Source: Candidatus Omnitrophota bacterium | GTDB lineage: Bacteria > Omnitrophota > Gorgyraeia > Gorgyraeales > Gorgyraeaceae | Direction of reading: 5' to 3' | Assembly: GCA_043814965.1 (NCBI GenBank) | Contig: JBDRJN010000003.1 | Location: 68,564-132,563, forward strand | DNA length: 64,000 nt | Part shown: positions 7,487 through 19,827 of the stretch, piece by piece | Position numbering within the stretch: position 1 is the stretch's first letter | Layout: every line of letters begins with the position of its first letter | The notes under the pieces: generated by a model | Databases searched by the model: none | What the model was told of the DNA's origin: nothing | The model's input: only the letters and a program-made list of their open reading frames with translations | Made by a program: the position numbers and the translations under genes

Positions 7487-8230
7487 TCACCTGTTTACAA
7501 TGCTTGCAAAATAACCTGCGCCAAATCCATTGTCTATATTTACCACGGTTACGCCTGGCGCGCAGGAATTGATCATTGTAAGAAGCGGTGCTATACCTTT
7601 AAAACTAGCGCCATATCCTATGCTCGTAGGTACAGCTATGACCGGGCTGGTAATAAGCCCAGCTACTACGCTTGCCAAAGCCCCCTCCATCCCAGCAGCC
7701 ACGATAACTACATTAGCTTTTCTCAAGTCATCTAGCTTATCAAATAACCTGTGTATGCCGGCTACCCCTACATCATATACAGCCTTTACGTTATTTCCCA
7801 TGACCTCCGCAGTGATCCTTGCCTCTTCAGCTACCGGCATATCGCTTGTGCCAGCTGTCAATACAAGGACTGTCTTTTTATTTTTAGGTTTTTTCTTTTT
7901 CAGGTAGATTATTCTGGCGAGTTCGTTGTATTGAAGGTCTTTGCGGGTCTCTTTCAAAAAGTCATAGAGTCTTCTACTGGCTCGTGTAAAAAGGATAAAG
8001 CTGGTCCTTTTTAAAATATCTTCCAGGATCTTCCTTACGTGCTCTGGCCTTTTACCCTCGCAATAGACGACTTCCGCAAAGCCCTTGCGCATTGCTCTAT
8101 GATGATCAAGGCGCGCAAAATTCAAGTCATTGTAAGGCAAGGTCTTTAATATGTCATACGCCTTTTTTACGCTGACTTTTTTATTATATAAGTCATTTAA
8201 TAGTGATCTGATCGGTTTTTTAAAGCTCAT
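7487..8230 (-). CDS. larB: LarB-like PurE-family carboxylase/hydrolase (nickel-pincer cofactor biosynthesis family, COG1691)
   Basis: 247 aa; ~110 aa N-terminal extension then a PurE/AIR-carboxylase-like fold (AGTSDMPVAEEA...VVIVAAGMEGALASVVAGLITSPVIAVPTS). Confidence 0.6.
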   Translation of the reverse strand: MSFKKPIRSLLNDLYNKKVSVKKAYDILKTLPYNDLNFARLDHHRAMRKGFAEVVYCEGKRPEHVRKILEDILKRTSFILFTRASRRLYDFLKETRKDLQYNELARIIYLKKKKPKNKKTVLVLTAGTSDMPVAEEARITAEVMGNNVKAVYDVGVAGIHRLFDKLDDLRKANVVIVAAGMEGALASVVAGLITSPVIAVPTSIGYGASFKGIAPLLTMINSCAPGVTVVNIDNGFGAGYFASIVNR

Positions 8231-8231
8231 T

Positions 8232-8525
8232 TTATTTAAAGATAAAGTATAAAATCACTATTATTGAGATCCCTGATAAGATATAGAAGTCGTTGAAATA
8301 AAATACATCCTTGATCTTGTCAGATAAAAGGCCGGGCCCTGCCTTGCCTGATGAAAAAACGCCTTTTTTACGATAAATATCGAGGTCTTCTACTTTAAAT
8401 CTTACATAGACCCCTCCTATTTTGTAAGAAGGTATTTTCTCTGTTTTTACAAATTCGCTTAACTCGTCTTCCTTGATACCAAGATAATTACTAGCTTCTC
8501 TTAAAGTCAAAAATTTTTTCATCAT
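8232..8525 (-). CDS. excisionase/MerR-type HTH (HTH_17) protein with C-terminal transmembrane anchor
   Basis: N-terminal LTLREASNYLGIKEDELSEFVKTEKIPSYKIGGVYVRF HTH_17-like; C-terminal hydrophobic FYILSGISIIVILYFIF. Confidence 0.6.
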   Translation of the reverse strand: MMKKFLTLREASNYLGIKEDELSEFVKTEKIPSYKIGGVYVRFKVEDLDIYRKKGVFSSGKAGPGLLSDKIKDVFYFNDFYILSGISIIVILYFIFK

Positions 8526-8540
8526 CTTAAAAAATTCTTT

Positions 8541-9062
8541 CTAAGCGGATTTCTCTTTTGCTATCCATTCATCCACTACTTGCCTGTCAAATTTCCATTC
8601 GTTCTCTTCTCTGACTGCCGGCAGTTTTCCGGCCTTTGCCCAGTTAAGGATATTCGATTCATCTACTTCCAGGTATGCGGCGAGTTCTCTTGCATTAAAA
8701 AAACTTTCCTTTTTACCTGACAAGATGCTCATCATATCACATTTACCCTGCAAAACAGCCCCTGGCTCGATACCTAACCTTGGAGTCGTGATGTCTCCGA
8801 TCACGTGGGCGCGGGAAAGGATCTTAAGGTCTTTGGACGCGACCACGTTTCCTGTGATCTTGCCTCCCACAATGATCTCCTCGCCCTGTATGTCTGCTTT
8901 TACAGTGGCATTCTCTCCTATCGTAAGAGATCCTTTCGTATCCAATTTTCCATCAAAGCTGCCATTGATCCTGAGGTTAACAGGGTCTTTAAATGTAAGC
9001 GTACCTTGCATGCTAGCATCAACATCAAGTATTTTTTCCTCTACCTTATCACGTCTTGCCAT
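8541..9062 (-). CDS. bactofilin-domain protein fused to a C-terminal excisionase-type HTH (HTH_17) domain
   Basis: Bactofilin beta-helix repeats (LTFKDPVNLRINGSFDGKLDTKGSLTIGENATVKADIQGEEIIVGGKITGNV). C-terminal ELAAYLEVDESNILNWAKAGKLPAVREENEWKFDRQVVDEWI. Start placed at the ATG with an AAAGGGGG RBS 8 nt upstream. Confidence 0.7.
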   Translation of the reverse strand: MARRDKVEEKILDVDASMQGTLTFKDPVNLRINGSFDGKLDTKGSLTIGENATVKADIQGEEIIVGGKITGNVVASKDLKILSRAHVIGDITTPRLGIEPGAVLQGKCDMMSILSGKKESFFNARELAAYLEVDESNILNWAKAGKLPAVREENEWKFDRQVVDEWIAKEKSA

Positions 9063-9066
9063 TTCT

Positions 9067-9519
9067 TTACCCCCTTTCACTTTCTTCTATTGGAAGTTTT
9101 CTTAAAAAATAAAGCGCTATCAATACTATTATCGTGCATATAATGCCAGCTGAATAAAAACCGCAGCCCACTGCTAACCCTATACCAGAGATAGTCCAGA
9201 GGCTAGCTGCTGTTGTAAGCCCTGTCACAGACGATGATGAACGTATAATAGTCCCTGCCCCTAAAAAACCGATGCCCGTTATTACGCTTGCGGCTATCCT
9301 GGAGGGATCAACAGTCGCCAGGCCCTTATAACTCTCGAACATATGAATAGATGTAAGCATTATAAGAGCTGAGCCGACACAGACAAGTATATGCGTCCTG
9401 AAACCAGCTATTTTTCTATTGTGTTTTTCCCTCTCAAACCCGACAAAACCACCCAATACAGCAGCTATAATCAGTCTGATCAATACCTGTAACGTATTAG
9501 TATCCATATCTCCTTTCAA
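9067..9519 (-). CDS. mgtC: MgtC/SapB family membrane protein
   Basis: LIRLIIAAVLGGFVGFEREKHNRKIAGFRTHILVCVGSALIM matches the MgtC N-terminal domain. Confidence 0.75.
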   Translation of the reverse strand: MKGDMDTNTLQVLIRLIIAAVLGGFVGFEREKHNRKIAGFRTHILVCVGSALIMLTSIHMFESYKGLATVDPSRIAASVITGIGFLGAGTIIRSSSSVTGLTTAASLWTISGIGLAVGCGFYSAGIICTIIVLIALYFLRKLPIEESERG

Positions 9520-10511
9520 ATATTGGCGGTTATATCCAGGGGGCTTCTCTTGCCTTTCCTGTATAGATGATACGCTAGTCCTGCTATCATAGCTCCATTA
9601 TCAGAACATAGCTTAAGTGGAGGAAAGTATGCCTTAAAGCCTTTTCGAAAAAACTCCTGTTTTATTAATTCCCTAAAACGGCTGTTAGCGCTTACCCCGC
9701 CTCCAATAACGAATTTCTTGATCTTATATTCCTCCAGCGCCTTTATGGAGTTCTTCACGATCACCTGTAAAACAGATTCCTGAAAACTTGCTGCAATATC
9801 CTCTATTCTTACCTTTTTCCCCGGAACCCGTATCCCGGAACCCGTATCCCGAACATAATAAAGCACGGCTGTCTTGATCCCGCTGAAACTAAAATTAAAA
9901 GTATCCTTTACAGCTCTACATGTAAACTTTATTGCTTTGGGGTTCCCTTTTTTTGCGAGCCTGTCTATTATGGGCCCTCCCGGGTATTCAAGCCCTAATA
10001 TCTTTGCAACTTTATCGTATGCCTCTCCTACCGCGTCATCCAGGGTGTCGCCAATAATCTCATGTTCATCATGATCTCTAAAAAGGCTCAATCTTGTATG
10101 ACCTCCCGATATTGTAAGTCCTATAAAAGGAAATCCTGCATCTTCCTCCATCATTGCCGAATATATATGCCCGGCTAAATGATCAACTCCCAATAGAGGT
10201 ATGCCCCTACTATAAGATAACGCCTTTGCAAAAGATATGCCGCAGAGTAAAGCGCCTACCAGTCCAGGCCCCTGCGTCACTGCCACCAGATCCACATCTT
10301 TTATATCTATATGAGCGTCTTTCAAAGAGCGGTCTACAACTTTGTCTATGTTTTCAACATGGTGCCTTGTCGCTATCTCAGGAATAACCCCGCCAAATTT
10401 CTTATGATACCTGAGGCTGGATGAGACCACGCTGGACAAGACCTGCCGGCCGTCTTTTACTATACTAGCTGCTGTCTCATCACAAGATGTCTCTATGCCA
10501 AGTATTAACAT
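9516..10511 (-). CDS. tsaD: tRNA N6-adenosine threonylcarbamoyltransferase TsaD (Kae1/YgjD)
   Basis: MLILGIETSCDETAASIV start; ASKMT fold; HxxxH metal site (HHVENI...DHLAGH). Confidence 0.9.
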   Translation of the reverse strand: MLILGIETSCDETAASIVKDGRQVLSSVVSSSLRYHKKFGGVIPEIATRHHVENIDKVVDRSLKDAHIDIKDVDLVAVTQGPGLVGALLCGISFAKALSYSRGIPLLGVDHLAGHIYSAMMEEDAGFPFIGLTISGGHTRLSLFRDHDEHEIIGDTLDDAVGEAYDKVAKILGLEYPGGPIIDRLAKKGNPKAIKFTCRAVKDTFNFSFSGIKTAVLYYVRDTGSGIRVPGKKVRIEDIAASFQESVLQVIVKNSIKALEEYKIKKFVIGGGVSANSRFRELIKQEFFRKGFKAYFPPLKLCSDNGAMIAGLAYHLYRKGKRSPLDITANI

Positions 10512-17925: not shown

Positions 17926-19827
17926 TTAATTTATGTCTTTCTGTTTAAGTGTTTTGACAGTCTCTCTTATCATCCTGCAATATAGATCAAAACCTACAGC
18001 TGAGATATATCCATGCTGCTCGGTCCCGAGCAGATTCCCGGCGCCCCTTATCTCAAGGTCCTCCATCGCGATCTTGAACCCAGAGCCAAGGTCTTTATAA
18101 TGTTCTATGGCCCTAAGCCTTCTTTCAGAGTCTTTGCTCATTACCCTATCTTTTGGTATCAAAAAATAGGCATAAGCCTTCTTATCGAATCTTCCGACCC
18201 TTCCTTTTAGTTGATAGAGGTCCGCAAGGCCGAACCTATCAGCCCTGTTGACGATCAAAGTATTAGCGTTAGGTATATCTATACCAGACTCTATTATAAC
18301 CGTACATACCAATACGTCAATAGTTCCTTTCATAAATTCACTCATAACCTTTTCAAGCTCATGAGCCTTCATCCTCCCGTGGGCAATAGCTACCTTGGCC
18401 TTGGGGACCATCCTGGATATGTCTTCGGCTATTTTTTCTATACCCTCGATCCTATTATGAATAAAGAACACTTGGCCGCCTCTATTTTTTTCATAAGATA
18501 TGGCCTTTTTTATAAGGCCGTGATCATGATTTGATATGATTATTTCTATTGGGAGCCTGTTTTGAGGCGGCGTCTCGATGATAGACATATCCTTTATATC
18601 CATCAGCGACATGTACAATGTCCTCGGTATAGGTGTAGCGGTCAATGTCAATACATCCACCAGCATACGCATCTTCTTTAATTTCTCCTTGTCCTTGACG
18701 CCAAACCTTTGTTCCTCATCTATCACTACAAGGCCCAGGTCCTTAAATCTTATATCGTTCCTCAATATAGCATGCGTGCCTATGACTATATCGACACTGC
18801 CTTTTTCTATATCCTCCAGTATCCTGGACACTTCTGTCCTGGTCCTGAAACGACAGACCAGCTCGACCCTGACAGGAAATGCCTTCATCCTGTCTTTAAA
18901 AGTAATGAAATGCTGCTCTGCGAGTATCGTGGTGGGCACAAGCATTGCTACCTGTTTATTATCCATGACTGCCTTAAATATCGCCCTTAAAGCTACCTCT
19001 GTCTTGCCGTACCCTACATCTCCGCAGAGAAGCCTATCCATAGGCTTCTTGGATTCCATGTCTTTTTTTGCGTCTATGCATGAACGGACCTGGTCAGGGG
19101 TCTCTTTGTACGGAAATTCTTTTTCAAATTGCGCCTGCCAATCCGTATCTTTTGAAAAACTAAAACCCTCCAGCTTTGCCCTCTTTGCGTTTAGCTCCAA
19201 AAGATCGAACGCAAAAGAATAGACACCTTCCTTGACCTTGTCCTTTGTCCTTTGCCAGAACCTTCCTCCTAACTTGCTGAGCTTTGGAGGCCTTTTCTCA
19301 AAAGCTACATACTTTTGGATAAGGTTCATCTCTTCTATGGGTACGTATAATTTATCCTTGTTCTTATACTCGATGACTATATGATCCTTTTTCTCTCCAT
19401 GAAAATCTATCTCTTCAAAACCTTTAAACACTCCTATACCATGGTCAAGATGCACTATATGATCATTTACTTTTATATCTATAAAAGATTCAAGCGGCGA
19501 CTTGAGGCTTGCTTCAAATTGTTTTATCTTTCTTCTCTTTGGATAAAGGCCTATTTTTGGAAGGATTATCACCATAGCATGCTCTTCCAATGTCTCATTA
19601 GAGAGTATACTGAAGCTCTTTATAGATCCTACTTTTGTACCTAGAAGTTCTACCCTGAGAGGCCCATCAAAGGTAGGCGGGAATATATCTATAATGCCCC
19701 CTCGCATGCTAAAATCCCCTGGCTCGCTTATCCTGCCAGCCCTCTGATACCCATAATCTATAAGGGTCTTGGCAAGTTCATCGTATCTTATATCTTCGTC
19801 TTTGTAGATTTTTATGGATTCAAACAC
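17926..19827 (-). CDS. mfd: transcription-repair coupling factor Mfd, compact form (633 aa) lacking the N-terminal UvrB-homology/UvrA-binding region and the C-terminal D7
   Basis: Mfd-specific blocks (MDRLLCGDVGYGKTEVALRA, VDVLTLTATPIPRTL, VLVCTVIIESGIDIPNANTLIV, EIRGAGNLLGTEQHGYISAVGFDLY). The ORF abuts argS upstream and surA downstream, so no missing exon-like piece is nearby. Confidence 0.85.
   Translation of the reverse strand: MFESIKIYKDEDIRYDELAKTLIDYGYQRAGRISEPGDFSMRGGIIDIFPPTFDGPLRVELLGTKVGSIKSFSILSNETLEEHAMVIILPKIGLYPKRRKIKQFEASLKSPLESFIDIKVNDHIVHLDHGIGVFKGFEEIDFHGEKKDHIVIEYKNKDKLYVPIEEMNLIQKYVAFEKRPPKLSKLGGRFWQRTKDKVKEGVYSFAFDLLELNAKRAKLEGFSFSKDTDWQAQFEKEFPYKETPDQVRSCIDAKKDMESKKPMDRLLCGDVGYGKTEVALRAIFKAVMDNKQVAMLVPTTILAEQHFITFKDRMKAFPVRVELVCRFRTRTEVSRILEDIEKGSVDIVIGTHAILRNDIRFKDLGLVVIDEEQRFGVKDKEKLKKMRMLVDVLTLTATPIPRTLYMSLMDIKDMSIIETPPQNRLPIEIIISNHDHGLIKKAISYEKNRGGQVFFIHNRIEGIEKIAEDISRMVPKAKVAIAHGRMKAHELEKVMSEFMKGTIDVLVCTVIIESGIDIPNANTLIVNRADRFGLADLYQLKGRVGRFDKKAYAYFLIPKDRVMSKDSERRLRAIEHYKDLGSGFKIAMEDLEIRGAGNLLGTEQHGYISAVGFDLYCRMIRETVKTLKQKDIN

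Follow-up and report, generated by a model that had tools for sequence, protein, structure and literature searches.

Bactofilins are membrane scaffolds that recruit their clients via short peptides, and their established links to DNA are only indirect, as with PadC–ParB in Myxococcus, or regulatory, as with BacR in Bacillus. Tethering of DNA to the membrane has been described for other proteins: in RacA–DivIVA of Bacillus subtilis, a MerR-like winged helix-turn-helix (wHTH) domain on a flexible linker is joined to a self-associating domain and reaches the membrane through a second protein (PMC4914108), and RocS of Streptococcus pneumoniae, Par of the Staphylococcus aureus plasmid pSK1 and TubY of type III par each combine a MerR-type wHTH with an oligomerisation domain and a C-terminal membrane element. 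The latter three are proposed DNA–membrane tethers for segregation, and they depend on multivalency to bind the membrane as well as DNA (PMC11500499, PMC7762940). Here we examine a two-gene module on a 64,000-nt stretch of Candidatus Omnitrophota DNA (contig JBDRJN010000003.1, positions 68,564–132,563, assembly GCA_043814965.1), hereafter referred to as the window, in whose numbering coordinates are given. The module consists of a gene for a bactofilin fused to a C-terminal winged helix (the fusion) and, immediately downstream, a gene for a small winged-helix protein with a hydrophobic C-terminal helix (the partner). An original prediction, made from the letters of the DNA, had suggested that the pair forms a minimal device for anchoring a chromosome or plasmid.

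The observation of the fusion and its partner is confirmed as real and far beyond chance. What would set the module apart is a DNA-binding-type fold on every polymer subunit together with an obligatory tail-anchored partner of the same fold. Searches of the full-text literature found no paper combining Omnitrophota and bactofilin and no publication on the module, and no bactofilin-HTH fusion is described in the literature that mentions bactofilin together with helix-turn-helix (HTH), domain architecture or membrane-targeting sequence. Database annotations are restricted to 'polymer-forming cytoskeletal protein', 'excisionase family DNA binding protein' and 'helix-turn-helix domain-containing protein'.

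The fusion protein

The fusion gene occupies 8541–9062 on the minus strand, with its stop codon at 8541–8543, as seen from the open reading frame (ORF), Pfam matches and homologues. Since the N-terminus read from ATG 9062 is conserved in 62 homologues (pattern M-[AL]-[RK]-R-D-K) and a GGGGG Shine–Dalgarno sequence lies 7 nt upstream (9070–9074, minus strand, within the last mgtC codons), sequence comparison identifies this ATG as the true start, so that the gene encodes 173 aa plus a stop codon and not the 174 aa first assigned to these same coordinates. An NCBI protein 100% identical to the window fusion is likewise 173 aa long. The alternative start GTG 9080, which gives a 179-aa form, was rejected: it sits inside the ribosome-binding site of the fusion, and both the conserved N-terminus and the Shine–Dalgarno sequence favour ATG 9062. 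The 8-codon overlap with mgtC that had been proposed exists only for this GTG; with ATG 9062, the mgtC stop codon (9067–9069) leaves a 4-nt gap.

Both predicted domains were recovered by Pfam above their cut-offs, and the domain boundaries were thereby confirmed. In the 179-aa form, Bactofilin (PF04519) matches residues 17–114 with E=2.4e-25 and 89.1 bits against a cut-off of 27.9, covering profile positions 2–97 of 98, and HTH_17 (PF12728) matches residues 129–176 with E=9.5e-10 and 39.0 bits against a cut-off of 27; the TIGR01764 'excise' model stays just under its threshold (28.3 bits vs 28.8). Numbered from ATG 9062, the protein consists of a bactofilin beta-helix core (residues 11–110; 8733–9032, minus strand), a flexible linker in which the alignment columns are variable (residues 111–120; 8703–8732, minus strand) and a C-terminal HTH_17 domain of the excisionase/MerR-like type (residues 121–173; 8544–8702, minus strand). 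The AlphaFold2 model, which was built on 27 homologues and has an overall predicted local distance difference test (pLDDT) score of 78.8, agrees with this division: it shows a beta-helix at 11–110 (pLDDT about 90), disorder at 112–119 (pLDDT below 50) and a beta-alpha-alpha-beta-beta-alpha winged helix at 121–172. The C-terminal 50 or so residues are thus modelled as a winged helix and not as a disordered tail, and no helical coiled coil is predicted in the model.

The core resembles known bactofilins by both profile and structure. It matches the BacA structure 2n3d at E=7.9e-9, and in Foldseek searches it superimposes on the Thermus thermophilus bactofilin TtBac (6ria/6rib) with a TM(target) of 0.89 and a root-mean-square deviation of 1.3–1.5. 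Its first windings, KILDVDASMQGTLxFKDPVNLRINGxFEGKLDTKG, are almost invariant in the fusion family. The substitutions F130R in BacA and F105R in TtBac block polymerisation, and both of these phenylalanines align to L104 of the fusion, a column occupied in every homologue by I, L or M (motif GA[VI][IML][HQ]G[KR]C); the interface position is therefore hydrophobic throughout, being aliphatic rather than aromatic. The canonical N-terminal membrane-targeting sequence (MTS) of bactofilins is of the MFSK/R type, with F2, K4 and K7 essential. It is not seen in the window fusion, which starts MARRDKVEEK, and the members of its clade start MARRDK or MLKRDK, without Phe. One sub-clade (loci L031, L033–L036, L050 and L063) carries an N-terminal extension of the form M(A/V)FRx(K/R)KK or MFKNRKK, which is MTS-like.

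The partner protein

The partner gene (8232–8525, minus strand) starts 15 nt past the fusion stop codon and encodes 97 aa. Its N-terminal HTH_17 domain (residues 5–53; 8367–8513, minus strand) matches PF12728 with E=9.6e-8 and 32.6 bits against the cut-off of 27, and also exceeds the cut-off of TIGR01764 'excise' (32.7 bits vs 28.8); further profile matches are RdfS (E=1.4e-5) and Pukovnik Xis (8e-5). The recognition helix of this domain is acidic, whereas its wing, YKIGGxYxRF[KR], is basic. It is followed by a net basic, disordered linker that varies in length and sequence (residues 54–68; 8322–8366, minus strand), a juxtamembrane aromatic motif [KR]-D-F-F-Y-F-N-D-F-Y-I (residues 69–82; 8280–8321, minus strand; DKIKDVFYFNDFYI in the window) and a C-terminal transmembrane helix predicted from hydropathy and AlphaFold2 (residues 83–96 plus Lys97; 8235–8279, minus strand; pLDDT 88–93). 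Conservation in the partner peaks in the aromatic motif, where D73, Y76, F77, N78, D79, F80 and Y81 are invariant or nearly so in 33–61 sequences.

The transmembrane helix that had been predicted for this neighbour was borne out by hydropathy as well as by structure prediction. Kyte-Doolittle maxima over 19 residues range from 1.56 to 3.33 and fall at the extreme C-terminus in 60/60 homologues. The AlphaFold2 model (pLDDT 75.3) has the winged helix at 5–53, the disordered basic linker and a single long helix at 65–96 (pLDDT about 90), the latter made up of the aromatic motif and some 14 hydrophobic residues with a terminal Lys or Arg. From these data we infer a tail-anchored membrane protein with essentially nothing on the extracytoplasmic side.

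The two HTH domains had been called paralogous. Profile comparison indicates that they are homologous (hhalign probability 97%, E=2e-11, 24% identity), but BLASTP gives no match between them and they are accordingly not close paralogues.

Conservation of the gene pair

A homology search of 5.8 billion proteins gave 2,743 matches to the window fusion. The best 120 of these all combine Bactofilin with HTH_17 in 169–177 aa, are 60–75% identical to the window protein and come from Candidatus Omnitrophota wherever a name is given. In a profile search of 1.84 billion representatives, only about 25 clusters (50% identity) span both domains, the remainder being plain bactofilins. The partner family is equally confined; it is small (61 clusters) and limited to the same organisms as the fusion.

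To describe the neighbourhood, one genome per species was scanned, which yielded 63 Omnitrophota loci with a full fusion, and adjacency was counted by tblastn of the window proteins onto these loci, using informative loci only. The partner lies immediately downstream of the fusion in 60/60 informative loci, and in the three loci without a partner match the contig breaks off. Fusions from three far more divergent lineages, L081, L085 and L086, also have a gene encoding an HTH and a transmembrane segment directly downstream, so that the conservation of adjacency on which the original prediction had hinged was found across related genomes. Since partner adjacency is held while the flanking genes change, the functional unit is the gene pair itself. 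In about a dozen genomes the pair stands alone in other contexts, for example greA-acpS-ydjC-surE or radA, and among the divergent fusions P0140 lies beside SPOR and TPR/PDZ genes, whereas P0144 and P0130/P0343 lie between mgtC and larB.

In the window the minus-strand order is tsaD, mgtC, fusion, partner, larB, a 69-aa membrane peptide and a GT2 glycosyltransferase, with gaps of -4, 4, 15 and 1 nt from tsaD to larB. A promoter and terminator consensus scan of the window found no terminator-like site between the genes from tsaD to GT2, and the consensus counts in the window were not above those in shuffled controls. The tsaD gene (9516–10511, minus strand) is unambiguous from its profile matches; mgtC (9067–9519, minus strand; 150 aa; Pfam MgtC 1.2e-40, 139 bits) and the nickel-pincer cofactor biosynthesis gene larB (7487–8230, minus strand; NCBIfam LarB, 302 bits vs a cut-off of 175) are given for context only. 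The proposal of a single transcription unit with mgtC and larB fits the tight packing in the window, but it is not supported by the adjacency counts across the phylum. MgtC adjacency was found in 47/58 loci (81%) and larB adjacency in 32/54 (59%), compared with 45/54 (83%) for tsaD, 40/48 (83%) for ctpA and 36/44 (82%) for gatB. Because their adjacency is no higher than the 82–83% of tsaD, ctpA and gatB, mgtC and larB are no more tightly linked to the pair than unrelated housekeeping genes and appear to be dispensable neighbours; as parts of the device they were rejected on these synteny statistics and on the alternative contexts greA-acpS-ydjC-surE, radA and SPOR/TPR-PDZ.

The most divergent fusion, P0342 (L084:290-5567; JGI 3300009777, Ga0105164_10002154), has a different setting. 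It adjoins a Volactin-family actin homologue (PF25216, E=2e-91), and the gene downstream encodes a signal-peptide protein and not an HTH partner. The cluster further contains three proteins without a Pfam match and a ParA/MinD-like ATPase that carries a fused AMPK1_CBM/CBM48 glycogen-binding module, and may represent a distinct cytoskeletal or positioning gene cluster; it is the only locus with a ParA/MinD-like gene near the fusion. Many metagenome-assembled genome records titled 'uncultured Planctomycetia' (L005, L010, L011, L013, L014, L017 and others) carry an Omnitrophota-type fusion of 50–69% identity and share the gatB-ctpA-tsaD-mgtC synteny, and their recorded taxonomy is probably imprecise. 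Finally, two proteins, P0165 (311 aa) and P0152 (199 aa), have the C-terminal half of the fusion (last beta-helix turns plus HTH) joined to an unrelated N-terminus, glycosyltransferase-like in one and a signal peptide with repeats in the other. They are probably chimeras of assembly or gene calling, but could be real alternative fusions.

Selection and translation signals

Mean pairwise distances over 40 genomes were 0.45 for the bactofilin core, 0.54 for CtpA, 0.59 for TsaD, 0.59 for the partner tail, 0.68 for the fusion HTH and 0.92 for the partner HTH. The bactofilin core is thus under strong purifying selection and more constrained than both CtpA and TsaD, an essential tRNA-modification enzyme. 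Across this largely uncultivated phylum the module is as conserved as core translation genes.

The two genes also differ in their translation signals. In almost all of the 61 homologous loci a strong GGAGG/GGGGG Shine–Dalgarno sequence precedes the fusion gene at a constant distance, whereas none is present before the partner gene in 54/60 loci; in the window the sequence before the partner (8526–8540) reads AAAGAATTTTTTAAG and is followed by ATGATG. The lack of a Shine–Dalgarno sequence before the partner suggests either that it is translated at a much lower level than the fusion, giving an abundant polymer subunit and a scarce anchor, or that the two genes are translationally coupled.

In many genomes the sequence upstream of the fusion is simply the 3' end of mgtC. 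Three related genomes (L015, L026 and L028) have a perfect palindrome, GTGACACTCTGACAATGTCAGAGTGTCAC, between mgtC and the fusion gene, and other genomes have different, clade-specific hairpins at the same site. These hairpins are probably mgtC terminators, but may instead have an operator role. The stretch 9520–9600, where operator candidates had been expected, falls within the tsaD coding sequence and is not intergenic.

A candidate membrane–polymer–DNA tether

Our best reading, which we hold tentatively and at somewhat less than even chance, is that the pair forms a membrane–polymer–DNA tether in the manner of RacA and RocS, split over two proteins. In its favour are the confirmed architecture and folds, the constant adjacency of the pair, the constraint on the bactofilin core with its hydrophobic interface residue, and the housekeeping setting, free of an integrase, of the only two HTH_17 ORFs in the window; moreover, the published analogues RacA, RocS and TubY combine the same class of wHTH with an oligomeriser and a membrane anchor to tether DNA. 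The two genes would then specify a cytoskeletal scaffold that is peculiar to Omnitrophota and associated with the membrane. The fusion would polymerise via its bactofilin beta-helix into nucleotide-independent, non-polar filaments, from which the C-terminal HTH domains may emerge as pairs at the tail-to-tail junctions. The C-terminal helix of the partner would lie in the cytoplasmic membrane, hold the second winged helix just beneath it and supply or reinforce membrane attachment. Together, filament and partner would keep DNA against the inner surface of the membrane, either the nucleoid generally or a specific chromosomal region, and many individually weak HTH–DNA contacts could be made effective by the multivalency of the filament. 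A more specific claim, that Omnitrophota possess a nucleotide-independent two-protein system in which the polymer itself is the DNA-binding scaffold that organises or segregates the chromosome, is possible but rather doubtful.

This reading depends on whether the HTH domains bind DNA. Direct binding, as in the original prediction, is assumed from the Pfam name of the domain, and the evidence points in two directions. On the one hand, both domains adopt the beta-alpha-alpha-beta-beta-alpha winged-helix fold according to DSSP assignments of the AlphaFold2 models, and all of their solved relatives bind DNA. In Foldseek searches the fusion HTH matches the BldC–DNA complex with a TM(target) of 0.76–0.82 and Pukovnik Xis with 0.72–0.74, and further matches are RacA–DNA, small-terminase HTHs, RdfS and the centromere-binding domain of pSK1 Par. 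Basic wing residues are kept in the fusion (K/R151, K/R157 and R/K160) as well as in the partner, where the wing has a net charge of +3 and the linker one of +2. The recognition helix of the fusion (S136-N137-I-L-N140-W141; SNIL(N/E)W in the family) is similar to a polar helix of the Cro type, QSAIS(Q/N)W. It should also be borne in mind that the HTH of TubY cannot bind DNA as a monomer but does so as an oligomer (PMC7762940).

On the other hand, several observations weigh against the tether. BldC contacts the DNA bases through K26 and R30, and its DNA binding is lost in the mutants R30A and H46E (PMC5859096); the equivalent K15/R19 of RacA are fully conserved (PMC4914108). The basic recognition-helix residues are largely replaced in both the fusion and the partner HTH. 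In the fusions, the K26 position is Ser in 39/62, the R30/R19 position is Glu/Asp in 47/62 (Asn in the window) and the H46 position is Asp/Glu in 37/62. In the partners, the K26/R30-equivalent positions are E/D/S/N, and the next position is E/D in 55/61. Charge points the same way: 77% of homologues have a fusion HTH with a net negative charge (median -2, window -3), and helix 2, the recognition helix, is net negative in 84% of partners and in 53% of fusions. Mirror-tree and partial-Mantel values between fusion domains and partner domains were 0.13–0.35 and gave no signal above the negative controls (0.26–0.59). Inspection of 61 regions upstream of the fusion, in which no formal motif finder was run, showed no shared operator or centromere-like motif. 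ParA, ParB and PadC genes were not found among the neighbours in the 63 Omnitrophota loci or among the 28 window genes scanned, and the Omnitrophota loci show no linked smc gene either. Taken together, DNA binding by either HTH is plausible, while the sequence evidence speaks against the canonical mode, and any binding is probably weak per domain and reliant on avidity. The anchoring device first proposed is hence a reasonable leading hypothesis with good precedent: it gains from the architecture, the adjacency and the wHTH tethers RacA, pSK1 Par, RocS and TubY, and loses by the missing canonical recognition residues.

The alternative that survives best, though we consider it unlikely, is that the winged helices serve protein docking. 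They would bind each other, or the aromatic motif would bind the invariant first windings of the bactofilin core, and the partner would act as a membrane receptor or nucleator; the module would then be a bactofilin scaffold of the ordinary kind, serving clients of the cell envelope or of morphogenesis but attached to the membrane in an unusual way. The acidic or neutral character of both recognition helices fits such a role, as do the homology of the two HTH domains and the charge complementarity between the fusion HTH (net -2) and the basic wing and linker of the partner. So does the fact that the most conserved element of the partner is its aromatic motif and not its HTH, and the general lack of a Shine–Dalgarno sequence before the partner is consistent with a substoichiometric nucleator. 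The window fusion lacks the canonical MTS, and there is precedent in that BacA without its MTS can be recruited to the membrane by membrane-bound clients (PMC12448750) and in that BacR, an HTH protein, directly binds bactofilins (PMC13649987). However, the sub-clades with an MTS-like N-terminus (MAFRKKKK, MFKNRKK, MVFRNRKK) retain the partner, which is therefore more than a stand-in for the MTS. Also against docking are the DNA binding of every solved relative, the basic residues conserved in both wings, and the partial-Mantel value between fusion HTH and partner HTH (r=0.13, p=0.09), which is under the negative controls.

A regulatory switch like that of BacR appears more improbable. Here one or both HTHs would be transcription factors, possibly autoregulators, gated by sequestration on the polymer or membrane, linking expression to how the scaffold is assembled or to the status of the envelope. 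In its favour, BacR of B. subtilis is encoded beside the bactofilin genes, binds BacE/BacF, is recruited to the membrane and has its DNA binding inhibited by bactofilins (PMC13649987). Small wHTH proteins of the BldC type act as transcription factors (PMC5859096), the MerR-like regulator TubY binds membranes, and the tight gene packing in the window would permit autoregulation at the operon level. Nevertheless, with one HTH covalently attached to the polymer subunit and the other on a permanently tail-anchored protein that lacks an extracytoplasmic sensor, neither domain would be releasable in the way BacR is. The DUF4004 domain of BacR was not found in either protein, the upstream regions hold no conserved operator and often only the end of mgtC, the canonical base-reading residues are missing from the recognition helix, and so highly conserved a core points to a structural role more than to a regulatory one.

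A last possibility, that the HTH_17 domains are remnants of an excisionase (recombination directionality factor) or of MADS MAD1 and that their adjacency is meaningless, is very remote and effectively refuted by the synteny and conservation data: although the best HTH profile matches are excisionase, TerS and MAD1 models, all of these are domain-level matches under the family cut-offs (MAD1 38.7 and 31.3 bits vs 80), PADLOC returned only a domain-level mad1 without other components, no integrase, terminase or other MADS genes were found near the pair, whose surroundings are housekeeping genes (gatB, ctpA, tsaD, polA and similar), and the adjacency persists in 60/60 genomes at 47–75% identity under strong purifying selection. 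A defence-system or phage origin was likewise discarded, as PADLOC and PHROGs gave only domain-level HTH matches.

If the domains do bind DNA, the tether would be a new and very simple way for small cells to attach the chromosome to the envelope without nucleoside triphosphatases. Among bacterial cytoskeletal filaments it would be the first to carry a DNA-binding domain of its own, and with just a polymer and an anchor it would offer a minimal alternative to RacA/RocS and to bactofilin–PadC–ParB. If they do not, the module would represent a winged helix repurposed for protein docking and a new kind of bactofilin–membrane attachment. Either outcome would give a role to genes that are now annotated only generically, and the module is experimentally tractable, consisting of two small recombinant proteins.

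Other features of the window

The fusion is the only bactofilin in the 64-kb window, and the fusion and partner genes are the only HTH_17 ORFs there. All gene-like ORFs of at least 150 aa in the window (about 50 genes) lie on the minus strand, and the GC skew is negative across the 64 kb. The co-oriented genes include polA, gatA/B, ksgA, pdxA, surA, an mfd-like gene, argS, a sigma-70 factor, ppdK, glyQS and recO, and such complete co-orientation of housekeeping genes is unusual. The window MgtC (9067–9519) is the membrane domain alone, at 150 aa, whereas the MgtC proteins upstream of divergent fusions (L085:1-765, L086:855-1580) have 241–254 aa. LarB is present as an equivalog, but LarA, LarC and LarE were not found among 28 scanned window genes (26 to 35,870), and the partners of LarB in the cofactor pathway must be elsewhere or absent. 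Finally, the Mfd-like protein at 17926–19827 has 633 aa with UvrB-interaction, CarD/TRCF-RID and DEAD/helicase domains. Canonical Mfd has about 1,150 aa, and the window protein may be a truncated form, a minimal form or the product of a split gene.

Comparison with known systems

Among bactofilin-based systems, BacNOP–PadC–ParB/ParA of Myxococcus xanthus is similar in that a bactofilin scaffold organises the DNA–protein complexes of chromosome segregation (PMC5703909). There, DNA is bound indirectly via ParB-parS and the adaptor PadC, whereas in Omnitrophota the bactofilin itself carries a DNA-binding-type domain. BacR (YhbD) with BacE/BacF of B. subtilis, the only published direct link between an HTH and a bactofilin that we found, shares the arrangement of an HTH protein that is encoded beside bactofilins, binds them and is brought to the membrane (PMC13649987). 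However, BacR is a soluble dimer of about 210 aa belonging to DUF4004 (PF13171), which neither the fusion nor the partner matches at E<=0.1. Its interaction with bactofilins is non-covalent and reversible and inhibits DNA binding, and it regulates its own operon without a transmembrane partner. Compared with the canonical bactofilins BacA of Caulobacter crescentus, TtBac and CcmA, the fusion has the same beta-helical core with a hydrophobic residue at the polymerisation interface, but a folded wHTH replaces the disordered C-terminal tail, the window protein lacks the N-terminal MTS (MFSK...), and a dedicated partner with a predicted tail anchor is always adjacent.

With respect to the winged helix, no solved relative is closer in sequence and structure than BldC and RdfS, which form head-to-tail arrays on DNA, an ordered multimerisation of a wHTH of about 50 aa. 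These proteins stand alone and oligomerise only through the HTH itself, and the basic DNA contacts of BldC (K26, R30, H46, R47 and R48) are largely replaced in the Omnitrophota domains. The adjacent integrase and mobile-element context expected of an excisionase were not found at the pair, whose flanks are gatB, ctpA, tsaD, mgtC, larB and GT2 in a synteny conserved across the phylum.

The closest parallels in design are the tethers. RacA–DivIVA resembles the module in its linked wHTH and self-associating domain and resembles what is proposed for the module in its attachment to the membrane through a second protein and its role as a DNA tether, and RacA–DNA is among the best structural matches of the fusion HTH. 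The oligomeriser of RacA is a coiled coil, in contrast to the bactofilin of Omnitrophota; DivIVA lacks an HTH, which the Omnitrophota anchor carries; the fully conserved K15/R19 are replaced by Ser and Glu/Asp/Asn in the fusion; and sequence homology is limited to the HTH. RocS, pSK1 Par and TubY share the combination of wHTH, oligomerisation domain and membrane element that is proposed for the module, and the DNA-binding domain of pSK1 Par is a structural match of the fusion HTH. Each of them unites all functions in a single chain that has a coiled coil and an amphipathic helix, whereas the Omnitrophota module comprises two proteins and a beta-helical polymer, and its predicted anchor is a true transmembrane helix after a conserved aromatic motif. 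Moreover, RacA, RocS, Par and TubY have an N-terminal wHTH followed by the coiled coil, while the wHTH of the fusion is C-terminal and self-association would proceed via the bactofilin; the membrane element, if the two proteins act together, would be supplied in trans by the predicted transmembrane helix of the partner. The module thus belongs to none of the RacA, RocS, Par and TubY families, the PadC–ParB system, BacR/DUF4004, MADS or the excisionases, and its resemblance to RacA, RocS, Par and TubY is one of design and not of family membership.

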